A DNA stretch of 64,000 nt. Source: Escherichia coli (GTDB lineage Bacteria > Pseudomonadota > Gammaproteobacteria > Enterobacterales > Enterobacteriaceae). Every line of letters starts with the position of its first letter. The first letter of the stretch is position 1. Location: assembly GCF_017348835.2 (NCBI RefSeq), contig NZ_CP071375.1. One strand, written 5' to 3'. Below the pieces are notes generated by a model. That model was not told the DNA's origin. It searched no databases and saw nothing but the letters and a program-made list of their open reading frames with translations. Position numbers and translations under genes: made by a program. Shown here piece after piece: positions 55,258 to 63,974 of this stretch.

Positions 55258-55968
55258 ATGGCGGAGAATCAATCCACCGTAGAAAATGCAAAAGAGAAAC
55301 TGGATCGGTGGTTGAAAGATGGCATCACCACGCCGGGTGGAAAACTCCCTTCAGAAAGAGAGCTGGGAGAGCTGCTGGGCATTAAACGTATGACGTTGCG
55401 CCAGGCGTTGTTGAACCTCGAGGCAGAATCCAAAATCTTCCGTAAGGATCGTAAAGGGTGGTTTGTGACCCAGCCGCGATTTAATTACAGTCCGGAGCTG
55501 TCAGCGAGCTTTCAGCGGGCCGCAATTGAGCAAGGGCGGGAACCTTCCTGGGGTTTTACTGAGAAAAGCCGTACCAGCGATATTCCCGAGACTCTCGCGC
55601 CACTGATTGCAGTGACGCCATCAACTGAACTCTATCGCATCACCGGCTGGGGAGCGCTGGAAGGACATAAAGTTTTCTATCACGAAACATATATTAATCC
55701 TGAAGTTGCCCCGGGTTTTATTGAACAACTTGAAAACCACTCATTTTCTGCAGTCTGGGAAAAGAGCTACCAGAAAGAGACGGTAGTAAAAAAATTGATT
55801 TTCAAACCCGTCAGAATGCCAGGCGATATCAGCAAGTATCTTGGCGGTTCTGCGGGTATGCCAGCGATCTTAATTGAAAAGCATCGCGCCGACCAGCAAG
55901 GCAATATTGTCCAGATAGATATTGAATATTGGCGATTTGAGGCCGTAGACCTCATCATTAATCTGTAG
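55258..55968 (+). CDS. yihL: GntR-family transcriptional regulator YihL
   Basis: 236-aa ORF with N-terminal winged HTH and UTRA-like C-terminal domain. Confidence 0.9.
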   Translation: MAENQSTVENAKEKLDRWLKDGITTPGGKLPSERELGELLGIKRMTLRQALLNLEAESKIFRKDRKGWFVTQPRFNYSPELSASFQRAAIEQGREPSWGFTEKSRTSDIPETLAPLIAVTPSTELYRITGWGALEGHKVFYHETYINPEVAPGFIEQLENHSFSAVWEKSYQKETVVKKLIFKPVRMPGDISKYLGGSAGMPAILIEKHRADQQGNIVQIDIEYWRFEAVDLIINL

Positions 55969-55975
55969 GTGTTTT

Positions 55976-56956
55976 ATGGTGACAATAAATAACGCAAGAA
56001 AGATTCTACAACGTGTCGACACTCTTCCTCTTTATTTACATGCTTATGCCTTTCATTTAAATATGCGGCTGGAAAGAGTGTTGCCTGCTGATTTACTTGA
56101 TATCGCAAGTGAAAATAATCTACGTGGCGTCAAAATCCATGTTCTGGATGGCGAGCGTTTTTCTCTTGGTAATATGGACGATAAAGAACTCTCTGCCTTT
56201 GGAGATAAAGCCCGCCGTCTGAACCTTGATATTCATATTGAAACCAGCGCCTCAGATAAGGCATCTATTGACGAAGCCGTCGCCATCGCGTTGAAAACTG
56301 GGGCATCGTCCGTACGTTTTTATCCACGTTATGAAGGTAATTTGCGCGACGTATTATCGATTATCGCTAACGACATTGCCTATGTACGGGAAACGTATCA
56401 GGACAGCGGCCTGACTTTTACGATCGAGCAGCATGAAGATTTAAAAAGTCATGAGTTGGTGTCGCTGGTCAAAGAAAGTGAGATGGAGTCTCTTTCCTTA
56501 CTGTTTGATTTTGCGAACATGATCAATGCAAATGAGCATCCCATAGACGCCTTAAAAACGATGGCACCGCATATTACCCAGGTCCATATCAAAGATGCCT
56601 TGATCGTTAAAGAACAGGGTGGCCTGGGTCATAAAGCCTGTATTTCAGGTCAGGGTGATATGCCGTTCAAAGCGTTATTAACGCACCTTATCTGCCTGGG
56701 TGATGATGAGCCGCAGGTGACGGCATATGGCCTGGAAGAAGAGGTTGATTATTATGCACCGGCGTTCCGCTTTGAAGACGAAGATGATAATCCGTGGATC
56801 CCTTATCGCCAGATGAGTGAAACACCATTGCCAGAAAATCATTTACTGGATGCGCGGTTACGTAAAGAAAAAGAAGATGCAATTAATCAGATAAATCATG
56901 TGCGTAACGTACTACAACAAATCAAACAAGAGGCAAACCATCTTCTGAACCACTAA
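55976..56956 (+). CDS. yihM: Sugar-phosphate isomerase/epimerase (TIM-barrel) family protein YihM
   Basis: 326-aa ORF recognised as YihM. Confidence 0.88.
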   Translation: MVTINNARKILQRVDTLPLYLHAYAFHLNMRLERVLPADLLDIASENNLRGVKIHVLDGERFSLGNMDDKELSAFGDKARRLNLDIHIETSASDKASIDEAVAIALKTGASSVRFYPRYEGNLRDVLSIIANDIAYVRETYQDSGLTFTIEQHEDLKSHELVSLVKESEMESLSLLFDFANMINANEHPIDALKTMAPHITQVHIKDALIVKEQGGLGHKACISGQGDMPFKALLTHLICLGDDEPQVTAYGLEEEVDYYAPAFRFEDEDDNPWIPYRQMSETPLPENHLLDARLRKEKEDAINQINHVRNVLQQIKQEANHLLNH

Positions 56957-57057
56957 TAAGTTTTAACTCATACGCAGTTAACAAAACCATTCCATATGAA
57001 TGGTCGGTATCTTATTGCCTTTAAAACAGTGATTTTAAAAATCGCTTAGGGGATGTT

Positions 57058-58323
57058 ATGCTCACGAAAAAGAAATGGGCGTTATTTAGTCTATTAACAC
57101 TGTGTGGCGGTACAATTTATAAATTACCGTCGCTGAAAGATGCGTTTTATATCCCGATGCAGGAATATTTCCATTTGACCAATGGTCAAATTGGTAATGC
57201 TATGTCGGTAAACTCATTTGTTACCACAGTGGGCTTTTTTCTGTCTATTTATTTTGCCGATAAACTACCGCGCAGATACACCATGTCATTCTCACTCATT
57301 GCGACAGGATTACTGGGTGTTTATTTGACGACAATGCCGGGGTATTGGGGCATCCTCTTTGTCTGAGCGCTATTTGGCGTTACTTGCGACATGATGAACT
57401 GGCCGGTCTTGCTCAAGTCGGTAAGTCGATTGGGCAATAGCGAACAACAAGGTCGGTTGTTTGGCTTCTTCGAAACAGGGCGTGGCATTGTCGATACCGT
57501 GGTGGCATTTTCTGCGTTGGCAGTATTTACCTGGTTTGGCAGTGGCTTATTGGGTTTTAAAGCAGGCATCTGGTTCTATTCCCTTATTGTGATTGCCGTA
57601 GGCATTATTATTTTCTTTGTCCTGAATGACAAAGAAGAGGCACCGTCCGTTGAGGTGAAAAAAGAAGACGGAGCATCGCAAAACACCAGTATGACCTCGG
57701 TGCTGAGAGACAAAACTATCTGGCTTATCGCTTTCAACGTCTTCTTCGTTTACGCGGTTTACTGTGGCCTGACATTCTTCATTCCATTCCTGAAAAACAT
57801 CTATCTATTGCCCGTTGCGCTGGTGGGGGCTTACGGCATCATTAACCAATACTGTCTGAAAATGATTGGTGGACCGATTGGTGGCATGATTTCAGATAAG
57901 ATCCTGAAATCGCCAAGTAAATATCTATGCTACACCTTTATCATCAGTACCGCTGCGCTCGTACTGTTGATTATGCTGCCGCACGAAAGTATGCCGGTCT
58001 ATTTAGGGATGGCATGTACGCTGGGCTTTGGCGCGATAGTCTTTACACAGCGAGCCGTATTTTTTGCACCTATCGGCGAAGCAAAAATTGCTGAGAATAA
58101 AACAGGCGCGGCGATGGCGTTGGGTAGCTTTATTGGTTACGCCCCGGCGATGTTCTGCTTCAGTCTGTATGGCTACATTCTGGATTTAAATCCGGGGATT
58201 ATTGGCTACAAAATCGTGTTTGGCATTATGGCCTGCTTCGCATTCTGTGGTGCGGTGGTTTCCGTAATGCTGGTTAAGCGTATTAGCCAACGTAAGAAAG
58301 AGATGCTGGCGGCTGAAGCTTAA
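57058..58323 (+). pseudogene. yihN: MFS transporter yihN interrupted by an in-frame TGA at 57364-57366
   Basis: Two same-frame ORFs (102 aa ending ...GILFV-stop, then 310 aa from MMNWPVLL) separated by 24 nt that translate in frame (ALFGVTCD); together they reconstruct a 421-codon MFS transporter. Confidence 0.8.
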
Positions 58324-58328
58324 TTAAT

Positions 58329-58406
<78 letters not shown>

Positions 58407-58413
58407 TTTCACA

Positions 58414-59106
58414 TCAGAAGAAATACTTCGTCCCGATACGAATCTGGTTTTGCTCGCGGTGGTACGGTTCCACGTTGCGATCTAACCAGCGCAATTCAAT
58501 ATAGGGCAGCCAGTGCTCGTTAATGCGGTAACGGAAGGTGTTAGTGATTTCCCAGTGATGCTTCGTGCCATTGCTGCTATTGAAATCATTAATGTTATAA
58601 AAATAATGCGGCTCAAAGGTATATGAGAACTTATCGGTAATAATAAAGTTCCAGTAGTTGCCAATCTCGTAGCTGTCATTATTATCCAGATCACCGTTTA
58701 AATCGGTTGAGCTGTAGTTATTATGGTTAAAACGATTGCGCACTGTCAGGTTAAACCACGGAGTAAATTTGTAGTTAACATCCAGATAAACAGCACCACC
58801 GGAACCGGCGCTCTTATCATTAATTAAGCCACCGGGCTGGATGGTTAATTTATCGGTTGGTTTAAATAACGGATACCAGCCTTCAATTTCGTTATATCCA
58901 TGTTTTAGTTCATCTTCTCGCTGAAAGGTGTAGGTATTGGTTAACATAATACCCGCGCCCATATCGAAGTTATAACCCACACGTAGCATAACCTCGCCCT
59001 GATCGGAGGCGAGATTATATGCCTCCCTGTTTTCGACGTATGCGCCAGCGAATACTGAGGCAGAGGTCAGAGAAGATAATAAAATTATTGCATTAATATT
59101 TTTCAT
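58414..59106 (-). CDS. ompL: Outer membrane porin L
   Basis: ORF track 58414..59172; Met23 (MKNINAIILLSSLTSASVFA signal peptide) gives 230 aa; C-terminal aromatic YFF. Confidence 0.9.
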   Translation of the reverse strand: MKNINAIILLSSLTSASVFAGAYVENREAYNLASDQGEVMLRVGYNFDMGAGIMLTNTYTFQREDELKHGYNEIEGWYPLFKPTDKLTIQPGGLINDKSAGSGGAVYLDVNYKFTPWFNLTVRNRFNHNNYSSTDLNGDLDNNDSYEIGNYWNFIITDKFSYTFEPHYFYNINDFNSSNGTKHHWEITNTFRYRINEHWLPYIELRWLDRNVEPYHREQNQIRIGTKYFF

Positions 59107-59172
59107 AATAAGTCCATTTTTAAACGTAGGGAGGCCGCCACCCACCAGGATGGAAATAGCGGCTATTGACAT

Positions 59173-60056
59173 TTATAACGTTACGGAAGCCGTTTTTTCT
59201 TCTGTCGCCATCTCTTTATTTTTGCGTTGGTTGATTTCCTCAATAATCAACGCAAACCGTTTTTCATTGAGTGTGTAAAAGAATCCCATCGTCAATGCAG
59301 CAATAATTGCCAGTGCACAAGGCCAGATAAAAATGAGCTGACGCAAACCCTGTAATGTCGCATCACTTTGCGCGATGTTTGGAACATAACCGATTTGCGT
59401 CAGCATAATCCCTGGCAAGAAGCCAGCAAGTGCGGCAGAAATTTTACGAAAGAAGGTATAACCGGTATAAACAGAACCTTCGGCACGAATACCGGTTTTC
59501 CATTCACCGTAATCTACGGTATCTGGTACCAGTGCCCAGTTCAGGCTGTTTACAAAGGCCGTGCCAAAAAAGGCGACACAAGAGAACATGACGAAAGTGA
59601 AAGAGTTACTTCCCCAGAAATAATTCAGGATATCACCAACCGCCCATAGCACCATGCCAGCTAAATAAACCTGTTTTTTACCAAAACATTTTACAGTTAA
59701 TGGCACCAGTAATACGCCGATGAGGATGCATCCCATACTGAAGAATCCCATCCACGACAATAAATTAATATCATTCAGCACATACTGGGTGTAATAGACC
59801 TGAATCGCCAGTTTGATATTAAATGCCGCCAGGGTACACAAGTTAGCAATGCATAAAACCAGCAATGGCGGATTCCGAAATATCGCGCAAAATGATTTGA
59901 GAATACTGGCTTTATGTCCGGTTGGCGTTGTGTCCACATAATGCTCTTTGACGCCTCTGTAGCACAGCATCATAAAAATAAAGCCGCCAATGGAGAACAT
60001 AAGTGCCGCACAGGCATAACCGACGGTTGAGTCAGAAAAAAGCGACTGCAACGGAA
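59173..60056 (-). pseudogene. yihO: C-terminal ~294 codons of MFS (GPH family) transporter yihO; N-terminal ~170 codons absent, frame runs into IS629 end
   Basis: ORF-track product begins mid-protein (xQSLFSDSTVGYACAALMFSIGG...) with open frame upstream up to the IS inverted repeat at 60057; K-12 YihO is about 467 aa. Confidence 0.8.
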
Positions 60057-60098
60057 TGAACCGCCCCGGGTTTCCTGGAGAGTGTTTTATCTGTGAAC

Positions 60099-60986
60099 TC
60101 AGGCTGCCAGATCATTATTTCCGATGGAAGCATAATAAGCTTTTTCTGCTTCTGCCGGAGGAATATGGCCCAGCCTTTCCAGCAATCGTCGATTGTTATA
60201 CCAGTCCACCCACGTTAGTGTGGCCAGTTCCACTTCTGTCCGGTTTTTCCAGCTCTTACGGTGTATTACCTCCGCTTTGTAAAGACCATTGATGCTCTCA
60301 GCCATCGCGTTGTCATACGAGTCGCCAGTACTCCCTGTTGATGCCAGTAATCCGGCTTCCTTAAGCCGCTGCGTGTAGGCCAGCGATACATACTGAGAAC
60401 CTTTATCACTGTGATGGATTGTGCCGGACGGCCGACGGGCCCACAACGCCTGCTCCAGTGCATCCAGCACGAATGTTGTTTCCATGGATGATGAGACCTG
60501 CCATCCCACGATGTATCCGGCGAACACATCAATGATGAACGCCACATAAACGAAGCCCTGCCATGTGCTTACCCAGGTAAAATCAGCCACCCACAACTGG
60601 TCTGGACGTTCTGCCACGAACTGACGGTTTACGCGGTCGCATGCGGCAACGGCTTTCCGGCTGACGGTAGTGCGGACCTTTTTACCCCGGAGAACACCGG
60701 CAAGTCCCATAACTGCCATGAGACGTGCCACAGTGCATCTGGCCACTCTGATACCTTCCCGTAACAACTGACGCCAGACTTTACGCACACCGTATACCTG
60801 GTGATTTTCATCGTATACGCGCTGTATCTCTTTCTTCAGCCAGTCATCGTGCTGCGCACGGGCACTGCGTTTATCCGGATGATGTCGCTGTTGCTGACAA
60901 TGGTAATACGTTGACGGGGCAATATGCAGTTCGCTGCATACCGGTCCGCCCCCGTACTGCTCACGCAGCTTATCCAGCAGTGGCAT
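60099..60986 (-). CDS. IS629 transposase OrfB (DDE catalytic part)
   Basis: 295-aa ORF in the -1 frame relative to OrfA, overlapping its stop (AAAAAATAATG); DDE integrase-like (…WVADFTW…HSDKGSQY…). Confidence 0.9.
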   Translation of the reverse strand: MPLLDKLREQYGGGPVCSELHIAPSTYYHCQQQRHHPDKRSARAQHDDWLKKEIQRVYDENHQVYGVRKVWRQLLREGIRVARCTVARLMAVMGLAGVLRGKKVRTTVSRKAVAACDRVNRQFVAERPDQLWVADFTWVSTWQGFVYVAFIIDVFAGYIVGWQVSSSMETTFVLDALEQALWARRPSGTIHHSDKGSQYVSLAYTQRLKEAGLLASTGSTGDSYDNAMAESINGLYKAEVIHRKSWKNRTEVELATLTWVDWYNNRRLLERLGHIPPAEAEKAYYASIGNNDLAA

Positions 60987-61312
60987 TATTTTTTCCAGAG
61001 GCGGTCGAACTCCGCCTTCGCAAAATAAGCGGAAGCCTGGCGAAGGATATCGTTACTGCGGCGCAGTTCACGATTTTCACGTTCCAGCTCTTTCAGACGC
61101 TGACGTTCAGCGGTGGTGAGTCCACCATCACCACTCCCGGTATCCCGCTCATGCTGGCGAACCCAGACACGCAGAGTCTCCGGCGTACAGCCAATCTTTG
61201 GGGCAATGGAACAAATTGCCGCCCACTGTGAGTCATATTCATCCTGACTTTCCAGAACCATACGAATCGCCCGCTGACGGACTTCGGGGGAAAAACGAGT
61301 ATTTTTAGTCAT
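60986..61312 (-). CDS. IS629 transposase OrfA (HTH DNA-binding part)
   Basis: 108-aa [26 protein letters not shown]... with leucine-zipper-like C-terminus, typical IS3 OrfA. Confidence 0.9.
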
Positions 61313-61455
61313 CCTGTTTACCTCTTTCTCAGGGAGTTTAGTCTCCAGGATTTCCGGGGCGGTTCACATATCCATACCTGCCAGAGAGTTCATAAATATT
61401 TGACCAATATCATTTGAATCTATGGAGAGAAAAGTACCCTTGTCGGATCTTTAAA

Positions 61456-61535
61456 GAAAGCTCATTTACGCATCATTTTTTATTTTTGCGAGGCGTTTTC
61501 CAGATATGATGTAACAGTTGCAGTTATTATAAGTT
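61456..61535. repeat. Imperfect direct repeat, copy A (about 80 bp)
   Basis: GAAAGCTCATTTACGCATCATTTTTTATTTTTGCGAGGCGTTTTCCAGATATGATGTAACAGTTGCAGTTATTATAAGTT; about 75-80% identical to copy B at 61895. Confidence 0.6.
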
Positions 61536-61609
61536 CAAGTAAAACAGCCTTGTATTAATACCAGAATAAGGGCATCTGTTTTTTTATATTCAAGAATGAA
61601 AAATTTTTG

Positions 61610-61828
61610 TCATTCCTTATGCTCCTTACACTGATCATCAACACCAACTACCTCCCCCTTTTGCCTGCCTCCCTTTGCTTTACGTACCGGAAATTGCTGA
61701 CGTTCCAGATATTGCTCTACCGCTTCGCGTAAAATTGCAGATCGTGAAACCTTACGCCAGCCCCGAAGCTTGTTCAGCCGTTTAATTGCCTCTTCTGATA
61801 AATGAAGAAAAACCGTATTCATCGCCAT
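61610..61828 (-). CDS. Ribbon-helix-helix (CopG/Arc/MetJ-like) small DNA-binding protein, 72 aa; possibly YiiE-like
   Basis: ORF track 61610..61855; start at Met10 (MAMNTVFLHLSEEAIKRLNKLRGWRKVSRSAILREAVEQYLERQ) preceded by AAGGTGG RBS; beta-strand then two helices pattern of RHH fold; basic C-terminal tail. Confidence 0.7.
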   Translation of the reverse strand: MAMNTVFLHLSEEAIKRLNKLRGWRKVSRSAILREAVEQYLERQQFPVRKAKGGRQKGEVVGVDDQCKEHKE

Positions 61829-61894
61829 TACCACCACCTTACATATATTACTCATTAATGTATGTGCGAAAATTACGCCGGAAAATTAATTAAC

Positions 61895-61975
61895 GAAAGC
61901 GGATTTTTGCATGTTGTTTTGTTTTTGCGAGACGTTCTCCAGAAATAATAAGAGCGTTGCAGTTGTTTCATTTGT
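61895..61975. repeat. Imperfect direct repeat, copy B (about 80 bp), upstream of the RHH gene
   Basis: GAAAGCGGATTTTTGCATGTTGTTTTGTTTTTGCGAGACGTTCTCCAGAAATAATAAGAGCGTTGCAGTTGTTTCATTTGTT. Confidence 0.6.
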
Positions 61976-62331
61976 TACTCAAAAATGGTTTAGTTATCGC
62001 CCAGGATGAGTTATGGGTGCTACGAATATATTATATTCAGGGATATTTATTTGCATAATCTGAATGGTGTAGCCGAAAAACGTCAGCATCCTAACAGCAC
62101 CAGGATTTAAGGTGAAATTAATCTTCCATCACAGACCTGTCAGTACTGCCACCAACCGGTCTTTACTTGCTCATCGTTATAATTTTGTTGGTAACAGTTC
62201 GGGAAACAAGGAATTCCTTCCGGCCCCCCCGGTATCATCCGATAGCATTGACGTCAATCATCGGCTCGACGGTGAGTTTTTTTAATCGCATCATAGGGTG
62301 GCAACGTTCAGCACGATACGGGTCATAACAA

Positions 62332-62371
62332 AACTCCTGAGCAGCGGCACTATGCCGCTTTCACAGGAGTT
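62332..62371 (-). terminator. Long stem-loop about 130 bp downstream of the large minus-strand ORF, candidate terminator
   Basis: AACTCCTG-AGCAGCGGCA-cta-TGCCGCT-tt-CACAGGAGTT; on the minus strand followed by TTGT (weak U-tract). Confidence 0.4.
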
Positions 62372-62498
62372 CTGAATGCTGGTGCTTTCTGTATGGCTTC
62401 GCCATGACCCTCGCGGCTAAGTGCCTGCACACTTCTCTCTATATTTGATTTTTGCAATGCATTGGCCGAATTCTGATAATCCTAATGAGTTTTACTCT

Positions 62499-63974
62499 TC
62501 AGACTCCCATCCCTACGGTATACGAGTTAGATTCATGAATGAAATCGACATTTTTAAAAAACGAATCTTGTAAAACATCCGTGTTGATATTACCTTGCAA
62601 CCCAACATTAAATTTGTTAGAGACATGAAGAACTCGAATATCAAAAAGGTCTTTTAACATCATTACTTCTTCGGCTGTTAATGAATCGCAACTAAAATAT
62701 CCCTGTTGATCAAAAAGGTTTTCTATTTCTCCACCATCGGCGAGGCGTTTTTCAAGGAGTGTTTGCAACATCGAGTTGCCAAGGACAATGGATATAGTGC
62801 GATCTTTCGCAGATTTACACCCCATCACAACGGCAACATTCGTATCCCCCTCAGGAGTTTCATTTATCGCTGTCGCTAAAATGGTGGTCAAACACGCAAA
62901 CGGAACTGTATTTCTTTCGTGATTTAATTTATCTACCAGTTCATTCCATTTATCAAAAGCCGGACGATATTTGTTGCGCACAGAAATATCCGACTGGTTA
63001 AACAATTCAGCCATGCGATTTTTTATCATCTCGATATCCGGCGAACCAGAAAGACTTTGCGCATAATACGGTCCTGATGATGTTGCATACATTAAAGCCG
63101 AGCCCACACCTGTCGCCATGATGGGCGCAGCCACGGTTTTGGCAAGGGCGACGCTGCGATGGCTATGCGCTTCACAGGTTAAAGGAACATATTCCACTGA
63201 CTGCGGTAATTCCTTACATGCCTCCCTCATCATTGCGGTATGCTTTACAAACAACGGTTTTTCACTGCCAAAAAAAACCTTCTGCTTAATTGCACTAAGA
63301 AAACGCAAATCAAAAATGATTGTTTTTGGTTTATTATTTTTTGGCACATTTCCTATTATCCCGCTAAGAACCTTCCTTGCTGCATGGAGATTTTTTTGCA
63401 CAGCACATAACACAATTGACGAAGCCTTCTCTACTTCGTCATTGATTTTAATTTTAAAATCTGCATGATATACGTTGACGGGCAGTGCAAGTATATCTGG
63501 CCCTACATCTTTGGCTGAGTATTTATTGGTGATCGACGGCCGTGAATCCACGAGAAAACTTAGCTGCAAATTATGCTCTATATTACCAGCTGTTTTTGTG
63601 GTGTGATTAAACATAGAGATGCCACCTCTCATTCTTTCACACATATCCTCAACTTTTTCACTTCGTTCTTGTGGCAATTTGGCTTTAACGTTAATTTGAT
63701 GATTTTTACCCGTGCATTCCTTAACTACAAGGGGAATGTTATCTAAAGTGCCATACAGGCTAATAACGTCACCAGGATTTTTATCATGTAAGTAAGTTTG
63801 ATTAATACTTGAAGCATTCACAAAGAGGTCAATATTATAACTGTTTATAACTTCACCTACATCAAATGTGTAGTGCTTACTCTGGAGGCTGCCATCCTTA
63901 TTTAATTGTATATCAATCAATATATCCCCGGACTTTGTCACCATATCTTTGCCATAAACCATTTGCATAGCCAT
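62499..63974 (-). CDS. Putative CX5R P-loop phosphatase, phosphoinositide-phosphatase-like (INPP4 / SopB / IpgD-type); N-terminus probably beyond window edge
   Basis: 491-aa ORF with no in-frame stop between first ATG (63974) and window end; exact CKSAKDRT octapeptide at residues 386-393 (minus strand 62819..62796, read directly as TGT AAA TCT GCG AAA GAT CGC ACT); AT-rich composition; next to IS629. Confidence 0.6.
   Translation of the reverse strand: MAMQMVYGKDMVTKSGDILIDIQLNKDGSLQSKHYTFDVGEVINSYNIDLFVNASSINQTYLHDKNPGDVISLYGTLDNIPLVVKECTGKNHQINVKAKLPQERSEKVEDMCERMRGGISMFNHTTKTAGNIEHNLQLSFLVDSRPSITNKYSAKDVGPDILALPVNVYHADFKIKINDEVEKASSIVLCAVQKNLHAARKVLSGIIGNVPKNNKPKTIIFDLRFLSAIKQKVFFGSEKPLFVKHTAMMREACKELPQSVEYVPLTCEAHSHRSVALAKTVAAPIMATGVGSALMYATSSGPYYAQSLSGSPDIEMIKNRMAELFNQSDISVRNKYRPAFDKWNELVDKLNHERNTVPFACLTTILATAINETPEGDTNVAVVMGCKSAKDRTISIVLGNSMLQTLLEKRLADGGEIENLFDQQGYFSCDSLTAEEVMMLKDLFDIRVLHVSNKFNVGLQGNINTDVLQDSFFKNVDFIHESNSYTVGMGV

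Follow-up and report, generated by a model that had tools for sequence, protein, structure and literature searches.

The spacer of about 670 nt between yiiE and the 3′ end of a minus-strand 604-aa gene, which begins at position 62499, holds a short open reading frame (ORF). Its presence raises the question of whether it encodes a small protein, is left over from a degraded gene or is non-coding. The DNA analysed here (the window) is a stretch of 64,000 nt from Escherichia coli, of which positions 55860–64000 are 99.98% identical to E. coli PE164. The ORF has the structure claimed for it in an earlier note: it opens with GTG at 62112–62114, continues for 57 sense codons and closes with TAA at 62283–62285, and the peptide read from the DNA is identical to the one quoted there. 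The AGGA said to precede the start codon was also found, at 62102–62105 with a gap of 6 nt, as was the overlap with a palindrome, a perfect one of 12 nt lying inside the ORF. Our analysis indicates that this 57-codon frame is very probably an accidental open frame in non-coding DNA, lying over a fossil on the opposite strand. The elements of the locus on which the argument draws are the following.

61610–61828, minus strand: yiiE, the left neighbour, encoding a CopG/ribbon-helix-helix (RHH) regulator (Pfam RHH_1, E = 1.5e-11; RefSeq annotation in PE164).
62102–62105, plus strand: AGGA, a Shine-Dalgarno-like tetramer 6 nt 5′ of the GTG, read from the sequence.
62112–62285, plus strand: the 57-codon ORF, GTG to TAA, judged a chance, non-coding open frame.
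62170–62275, minus strand: 3′ remnant of a 92-aa gene (WP_001296612.1 family), comprising its last ~35 codons and former stop position (tblastn, DNA alignment).
62207–62285: the part of the ORF missing from K-12-type genomes, in which homology stops at 62206.
62224–62230: an indel-polymorphic C7 tract that sets the frame after codon 37 (18-locus alignment).
62247–62258: the perfect palindrome ATTGACGTCAAT, made by two G>A changes.
62274–62275: a deletion junction with a 2-nt GA microhomology (local alignments on either side, BLAST segments).
62276–62326, minus strand: 5′ remnant of a 70-aa gene (phrog_4499), comprising its first 17–18 codons, with the ATG at 62324–62326 (DNA and protein comparison).
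62332–62371, minus strand: a G+C-rich hairpin followed by UUUUGUU, a likely intrinsic terminator (folding, minus-strand z = -3.0).
62499–64000, minus strand: the right neighbour, a gene for a putative SopB-like CX5R protein, of which the 3′ 500 of 604 codons are in the window before it runs off the end; convergent with the ORF.

The length of the ORF is unremarkable, because ORFs of 57 codons or more, running from ATG, GTG or TTG to a stop, arose in 1,517 (76%) of 2,000 sequences obtained by shuffling the 643-nt spacer (61856–62498) with its dinucleotide composition preserved. The longest ORF per shuffle has a median of 67 codons, and the 64-kb window contains 144 ORFs of 57–99 codons. Codon usage in the ORF scores -0.03 bits per codon, against 0.36 ± 0.16 for the real genes of the window, represented by 57-codon segments of its long ORFs; 1.5% of these segments score as low, placing the ORF below 98.5% of them. 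The AGGA-N6-GTG arrangement is what is expected of a ribosome-binding site, which taken alone is weak evidence. A promoter scan found no sigma-70-like plus-strand promoter between yiiE and the GTG.

The spacer was found, in several structural states, in 5,371 of 5,426 complete E. coli genomes, and the island to which it belongs occurs in at least four structural states across the species. Read from the GTG at the corresponding position, the 18 E. coli loci sampled would give products of 57, 72, 72, 72, 72, 40, 44, 16, 44, 17, 44, 48, 17, 35, 35, 19, 19 and 7 aa, that is, ten different products of 7–72 aa from the same start codon. Comparison across these 18 aligned loci and the 5,426 genomes thus shows a frame that is disrupted repeatedly in close homologues, the outcome that the earlier note had named as a refutation.

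Much of this variation lies in the C-tract. The window reads CCGG-C7-GG, the O157-type allele CCGGAACACCCCCGG has two additional nucleotides, the O104-type allele CCGGAACCCCCCGG has one, and the B2-type tract has three, accompanied by other single-base indels. Allele-specific searches of the 5,426 complete genomes recovered the +1 allele in 1,153 genomes and two +2 alleles in 397 and 203, so that frame-shifting +1 or +2 alleles together account for at least 1,753 genomes. The exact allele of the window is found in two of the 5,426, PE164 and F2_81, both pig isolates; this count was taken from full-length identity rather than from allele-specific megablast, whose low-complexity filter would probably mask the 7-C run. 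The other frame-keeping allele (AAC5) occurs in a single genome, bringing the frame-keeping total to three of 5,426. Most other strains have one or two extra bases in the tract and read a different frame; what keeps the frame open to codon 57 here is solely the 7-C allele that this strain carries at an indel-prone site.

Two further groups of genomes lack the frame in other ways. About 1,271 of the 5,426 genomes are of the divergent B2 type, with further indels. About 2,002 are of the K-12 type, with matches to under 80% of the 211-nt query; in these, codon ~22 of the 604-aa gene follows immediately on position 62206.

The minus strand of the same DNA accounts for its origin. In the B2-type strains DS566 and LS4, an annotated minus-strand CDS of 92 aa (WP_001296612.1) overlaps the homologous stretch. 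A tblastn search with this B2 protein aligns residues 59–90 with window minus-strand positions 62179–62271 at 63% identity over 32 aa, interrupted by a single stop in frame and by a gap of one residue (E = 2e-11 for the spacer; 6e-7 among all loci). At the DNA level, window positions 61856–62275 match 1207–1683 of the B2-type locus L014 with 71% identity over 480 columns (E = 3e-72). The remnant also keeps its syntenic position, between the 70-aa gene/nadS terminator and a yiiE-type RHH gene, as in B2 strains, other E. coli and Klebsiella. Two lesions are present in what is left of the gene, an in-frame TGA at 62254–62256 and the loss of its own stop (TAA to GAG at 62170–62172), and codons 1 to ~57 are removed by a 390-nt deletion. 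Judged by these alignments, minus-strand 62170–62275 is a pseudogene stump of the 92-aa family.

The palindrome has its origin in the same decay. At its position B2 strains read ATTGGCGTCGAT, and G>A changes at 62251 and 62256 make the window copy perfect. In the frame of the minus-strand gene, one of these changes is synonymous (CGC>CGT) and the other, CGA>TGA, is the nonsense mutation of the stump.

We also considered the ORF as a classical codon-for-codon "shadow" frame of the 92-aa gene and rejected this candidate. Plus codon position 1 pairs with minus codon position 1, and therefore only an antisense accident is claimed for the ORF.

The right end of the ORF lies over a second fossil. 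A stretch of 390 nt found in B2-type E. coli (L014 1684–2073) is missing from the window; the junction was placed by local alignments on each side, as MAFFT and global pairwise alignment misplace the gap. Beyond the junction, 62274–62429 matches L014 2074–2231 with 88% identity and includes the start of the 70-aa gene, with a 1-nt deletion after codon 3 that shifts the frame and a truncation at the junction itself. Codons 5–18 of this remnant read RAERCHPMMRLKKL; the stretch is short, and for this reason its protein-level E value in the window is only 0.064. The TAA of the ORF (62283–62285) and the adjoining T-run are the complement of the L-K-K codons of the 70-aa gene.

Upstream of this remnant on the minus strand lies the hairpin at 62332–62371, which likely terminates upstream minus-strand genes, nadS elsewhere and the 604-aa gene here. 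In locus L003 copies of it are found downstream of both nadS and the 604-aa gene. The hairpin is part of a direct repeat of ~98 nt (window 62332–62429; L003 3475–3572 and 5291–5388) that lies on either side of a nadS/higB-like/hydrolase module, as seen for instance in strain ZF8-1. The window carries the repeat once and is without the module, an arrangement that fits either recombination between repeats or an insertion in those strains that have the module. Of nadS itself, the final ~20 nt remain at 62410–62429, and the hairpin segment is also present in the Pseudocitrobacter (L039) and Klebsiella (L042) loci.

Both parent genes are intact elsewhere. The 92-aa gene is complete in B2 E. coli and in Klebsiella, with full-length homologues at 66% identity in other E. 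coli and at 59–61% in Klebsiella. Across about a dozen diverged full-length representatives (13 members), the motifs MSTFNTRKDR, GKPKPH, W..RLYTT..RRA.DR.N and G.DPDG..W.PD..P..YYW are invariant. Pairwise dN/dS is 0.12–0.24 at dS of 1.3–2.0, substitutions fall mostly on third positions (for example 18/18/47), and the sense frame is free of stops, which occur in all five other frames. This pattern of substitution marks the 92-aa family as a real protein-coding gene under purifying selection. It has no Pfam, NCBIfam, PHROGs or PADLOC family, and its AlphaFold model (pLDDT 58) is too poor for a fold search. The 70-aa protein is Cys-rich and basic, is 67–74% identical across E. coli, Klebsiella and Pseudocitrobacter, and matches phrog_4499 (E = 8e-14).

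The surrounding gene order is fabY, an alpha/beta hydrolase, a RelE/HigB-like toxin, the NadS HTH antitoxin, the 70-aa gene, the 92-aa gene, a yiiE-type RHH gene and fdhE. This order is constant from fabY to fdhE across B2-type E. coli and Klebsiella, with the 70-aa and 92-aa genes on the yiiE strand. In L014 the two genes occupy 1918–2127 and 1575–1853, respectively, both on the minus strand. The pair is located between HigB/NadS and yiiE in B2 and other E. coli, in Klebsiella and in Pseudocitrobacter.

The following course of events would explain the ORF. The ancestral order would be the one kept in B2-type E. coli and Klebsiella, with fabY, the hydrolase, the HigB/RelE-like toxin, NadS, the 70-aa gene, the 92-aa gene and a yiiE-like RHH gene in succession. 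In the lineage of the window, the 390-nt deletion would have taken the 3′ three-quarters of the 70-aa gene together with the 5′ two-thirds of the 92-aa gene, after which the remaining 3′ stump of the latter would have gained its nonsense mutation and lost its stop codon. The plus-strand reading of this stump and of 58 nt of old intergenic DNA happens to be stop-free, and the Leu-Lys-Lys codons of the 70-aa gene, in complement, supply the TAA at the deletion junction. This account builds on observed homology, synteny, the deletion junction, the disabling mutations, the purifying selection on the intact parents and the unconstrained plus frame; we infer in addition that the intact form is ancestral and that the ORF is without translation. 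Of the three possibilities weighed in the earlier note, the remnant of a degraded gene and the non-coding one hold, with the decayed genes on the minus strand, which makes the plus-strand ORF an antisense accident; the small protein is not supported.

Among the alternatives, the one that survives best is that the stretch functions as DNA or RNA, either as part of the regulatory region of yiiE or through a short transcript, plus-strand or antisense, with its end at the T-run 62276–62282, the ORF being incidental. This is very unlikely. The spacer does lie upstream of yiiE, whose promoter must be in the spacer to its right, and the blocks 62094–62118 and 62151–62166 are nearly identical even in comparison with the 71%-identical B2 type. 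However, 284 nt or more separate the stretch from the start codon of yiiE, and about 2,000 genomes are without its right half and have nothing in its place. A weak terminator-like plus-strand stem followed by T7 (62258–62283) closes the ORF and would fit a short plus-strand transcript, but the number of such sites in the scan, one, equals the 1.0 expected by chance, and this one spans the deletion junction and therefore cannot be ancient. The plus-strand fold is no better than that of shuffles (z = -1.3). An Rfam scan of 61000–63000 at E ≤ 1 found no match at the ORF, its sole match being the ALIL pseudoknot of an IS3 element at 61000–61031.

A second alternative is a young strain- or lineage-specific small protein that arose de novo, with a kept N-terminus of ~37 residues and a tail that varies among strains. 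We regard this as very unlikely, and the N-terminal part is where the evidence for it is concentrated. All 18 aligned loci keep the AGGA, its 6-nt spacing and the GTG; among non-B2 E. coli, identity over the first ~37 codons is 95–99%, and the segment from AGGA-GTG through these codons is common to roughly 4,100 non-B2 genomes. Window-type and K-12-type strains have the N-terminal 31–40 codons in common. With a start signal and ~37 near-identical codons, these strains could in principle make a short peptide whose tail varies.

The changes within this same segment argue against selection on the peptide. Its 16 polymorphic sites, a small sample, fall 3/7/6 on codon positions 1/2/3 and comprise 10 missense, 1 nonsense and 5 synonymous changes; in this small sample there is no third-position bias that would indicate purifying selection on the plus frame. 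The nonsense allele (TTA>TAA in L009 and L010) and a 20-nt deletion (L013) both lie inside the seemingly conserved part, and in B2-type strains the frame is broken after 19 codons. The codon usage of the ORF resembles that of non-coding DNA, and no promoter-like plus-strand site precedes it.

Annotation and database searches likewise speak against a small protein. The 57-aa peptide has no match in Pfam, NCBIfam, PHROGs or PADLOC. A protein database search with it returned only E. coli "hypothetical" calls that have the first ~40 residues in common and continue into C-terminal tails in three frames (VSSDSIDV.., RHHPIALTS.. and GIIR*), the K-12-type version ending KLFF*; no plus-frame homologue outside E. 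coli was found in this search. Automated gene callers thus predict the ORF occasionally, which counts in favour of a protein, but among the 24 listed genomes that match the whole 211-nt query there is no RefSeq plus-strand annotation at the ORF, and PGAP never annotates it. A YiiE-anchored scan with one genome per species found the ORF region beside yiiE only in E. coli-type sequences (L020), and nothing points to deeper conservation of the plus frame; E. whittamii has only the first 88 nt upstream of yiiE in common. A literature search on yiiE and yiiF returned nothing relevant.

The three tail frames also allow a variant of this idea, a phase-variable proto-gene, in which a de novo micro-peptide antisense to a dead gene would have its tail switched among the frames by slippage at the C-tract. 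We give it the same slight chance as the de novo protein.

The earlier note had further suggested that small proteins beside effector genes can be chaperones or immunity factors, which directs attention to the right neighbour. The effector label is reasonable: it is fair because the 604-aa protein has a CX5R motif (GCKSAKDR), invariant in homologues of only 35% identity, and because Salmonella SopB is the best structural match of its model. The AlphaFold model is of low confidence (pLDDT 54, pTM 0.59); in a Foldseek search of the PDB its top match is SopB (8jzl, E = 4.7e-5), followed by Sac1 and Fig4. The protein has no Pfam, NCBIfam, PADLOC or PDB-sequence match. The gene would thus appear to be of a SopB-like, phosphoinositide-phosphatase type that has gone unrecognised in E. 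coli and Shigella. The copy in PE164 (L001 6640–8454) is an intact ORF, although the RefSeq annotation there divides it between a "transposase" and a fragment labelled as a pseudogene. In O157:H7 the gene has a nonsense codon, and K-12-type strains retain its first 22 codons only.

A role of the ORF product as chaperone or immunity partner of this plausibly effector-type phosphoinositide phosphatase, from whose 3′ end the ORF is 213 nt away, is the least probable reading and hardly credible: the ORF faces the 604-aa gene from the other strand, in convergent orientation, and therefore shares no operon with it; the spacer has a shifted frame beside intact 604-aa genes (L005, L011–L013) and is also found where nadS replaces the 604-aa gene as neighbour (L006–L010), so that the ORF shows no co-variation with the effector gene; and the product would be a basic peptide of 57 aa (pI 8.33) without a Pfam, NCBIfam or PADLOC family match.

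Several other features of the locus were observed. An IS3-family element at 60099–61312, with two ORFs, the ALIL frameshift pseudoknot and flanks spanning 59173–61855, separates yiiE from a yihO-type symporter gene truncated at its 5′ end. In comparison with the K-12 order, the block from yiiE to csqR is flipped with respect to yihN and ompL, which suggests an IS-mediated inversion. In the window yiiF and fdhE are not adjacent to yiiE. A paralogue of the segment 61890–61967 in front of yiiE, ~75% identical to it, precedes yiiF in other strains, so the tandem duplication that gave yiiE and yiiF took in the promoter region. The MFS transporter gene yihN is annotated in PE164 as a pseudogene with an internal stop (L001 1199–2464), and its open frame in the window, 57391–58323, is only 310 aa long. 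YiiE-type proteins are also encoded on contigs of assemblies labelled Bacillus coahuilensis m4-4 (L019, 100% identity), an uncultured Robinsoniella sp. MAG (L021, 87%) and Chryseobacterium sp. 18061 (L041, 53%); the first two loci are essentially E. coli sequence and probably reflect contamination or mis-binning in public genomes.

The result for the ORF itself is mainly negative. It is an ordinary false positive over decayed DNA, not a real gene, and it does not merit being kept as a candidate for a chaperone, immunity or small-protein gene. The DNA separating yiiE from the putative SopB-like gene is a degraded segment of a variable island that comprises the HigB/NadS pair, the hydrolase and two unannotated small genes. 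Two by-products of the analysis may be worth more than the ORF. One is the 604-aa CX5R protein with its predicted likeness to SopB, which RefSeq labels as a "transposase". The other is the conserved pair of 92-aa and 70-aa genes, apparently under purifying selection and in no curated family.

These readings can be set against three known systems. Chaperone genes such as those of the SigE–SopB (SigD) and IpgE–IpgD pairs of Salmonella and Shigella are conserved, co-oriented and co-transcribed with their effector gene, and secretion chaperones such as SigE are acidic proteins of about 110–170 aa. As in these pairs, a small ORF here adjoins a gene of putative SopB-like CX5R phosphatase type. In contrast to these chaperones, which are about twice as long, acidic and conserved, the ORF of the window is convergent with its neighbour, and its 57-aa product would be basic and non-conserved.

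The WP_001296612.1 family is the parent of the fossil on the other strand. The window segment 62170–62275 is homologous to the last ~35 codons of these genes and occupies the same syntenic place, but compared with them it is without the first ~57 codons, has a TGA in frame, has lost its stop and is read in the direction opposite to the ORF.

The ORF itself compares best with spurious or "shadow" ORFs over intergenic DNA and pseudogene remnants, which are well known as false positives of gene prediction. Like them, it has a length expected by chance and is antisense to a former coding region, its frame breaks in relatives, its substitutions have no synonymous bias, its codon usage is of a non-coding kind, and it is called sporadically by automated annotation. 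It differs from that class in nothing essential, its particular length hanging on a rare in-frame allele of the C-tract and on a stop codon supplied by the deletion junction.
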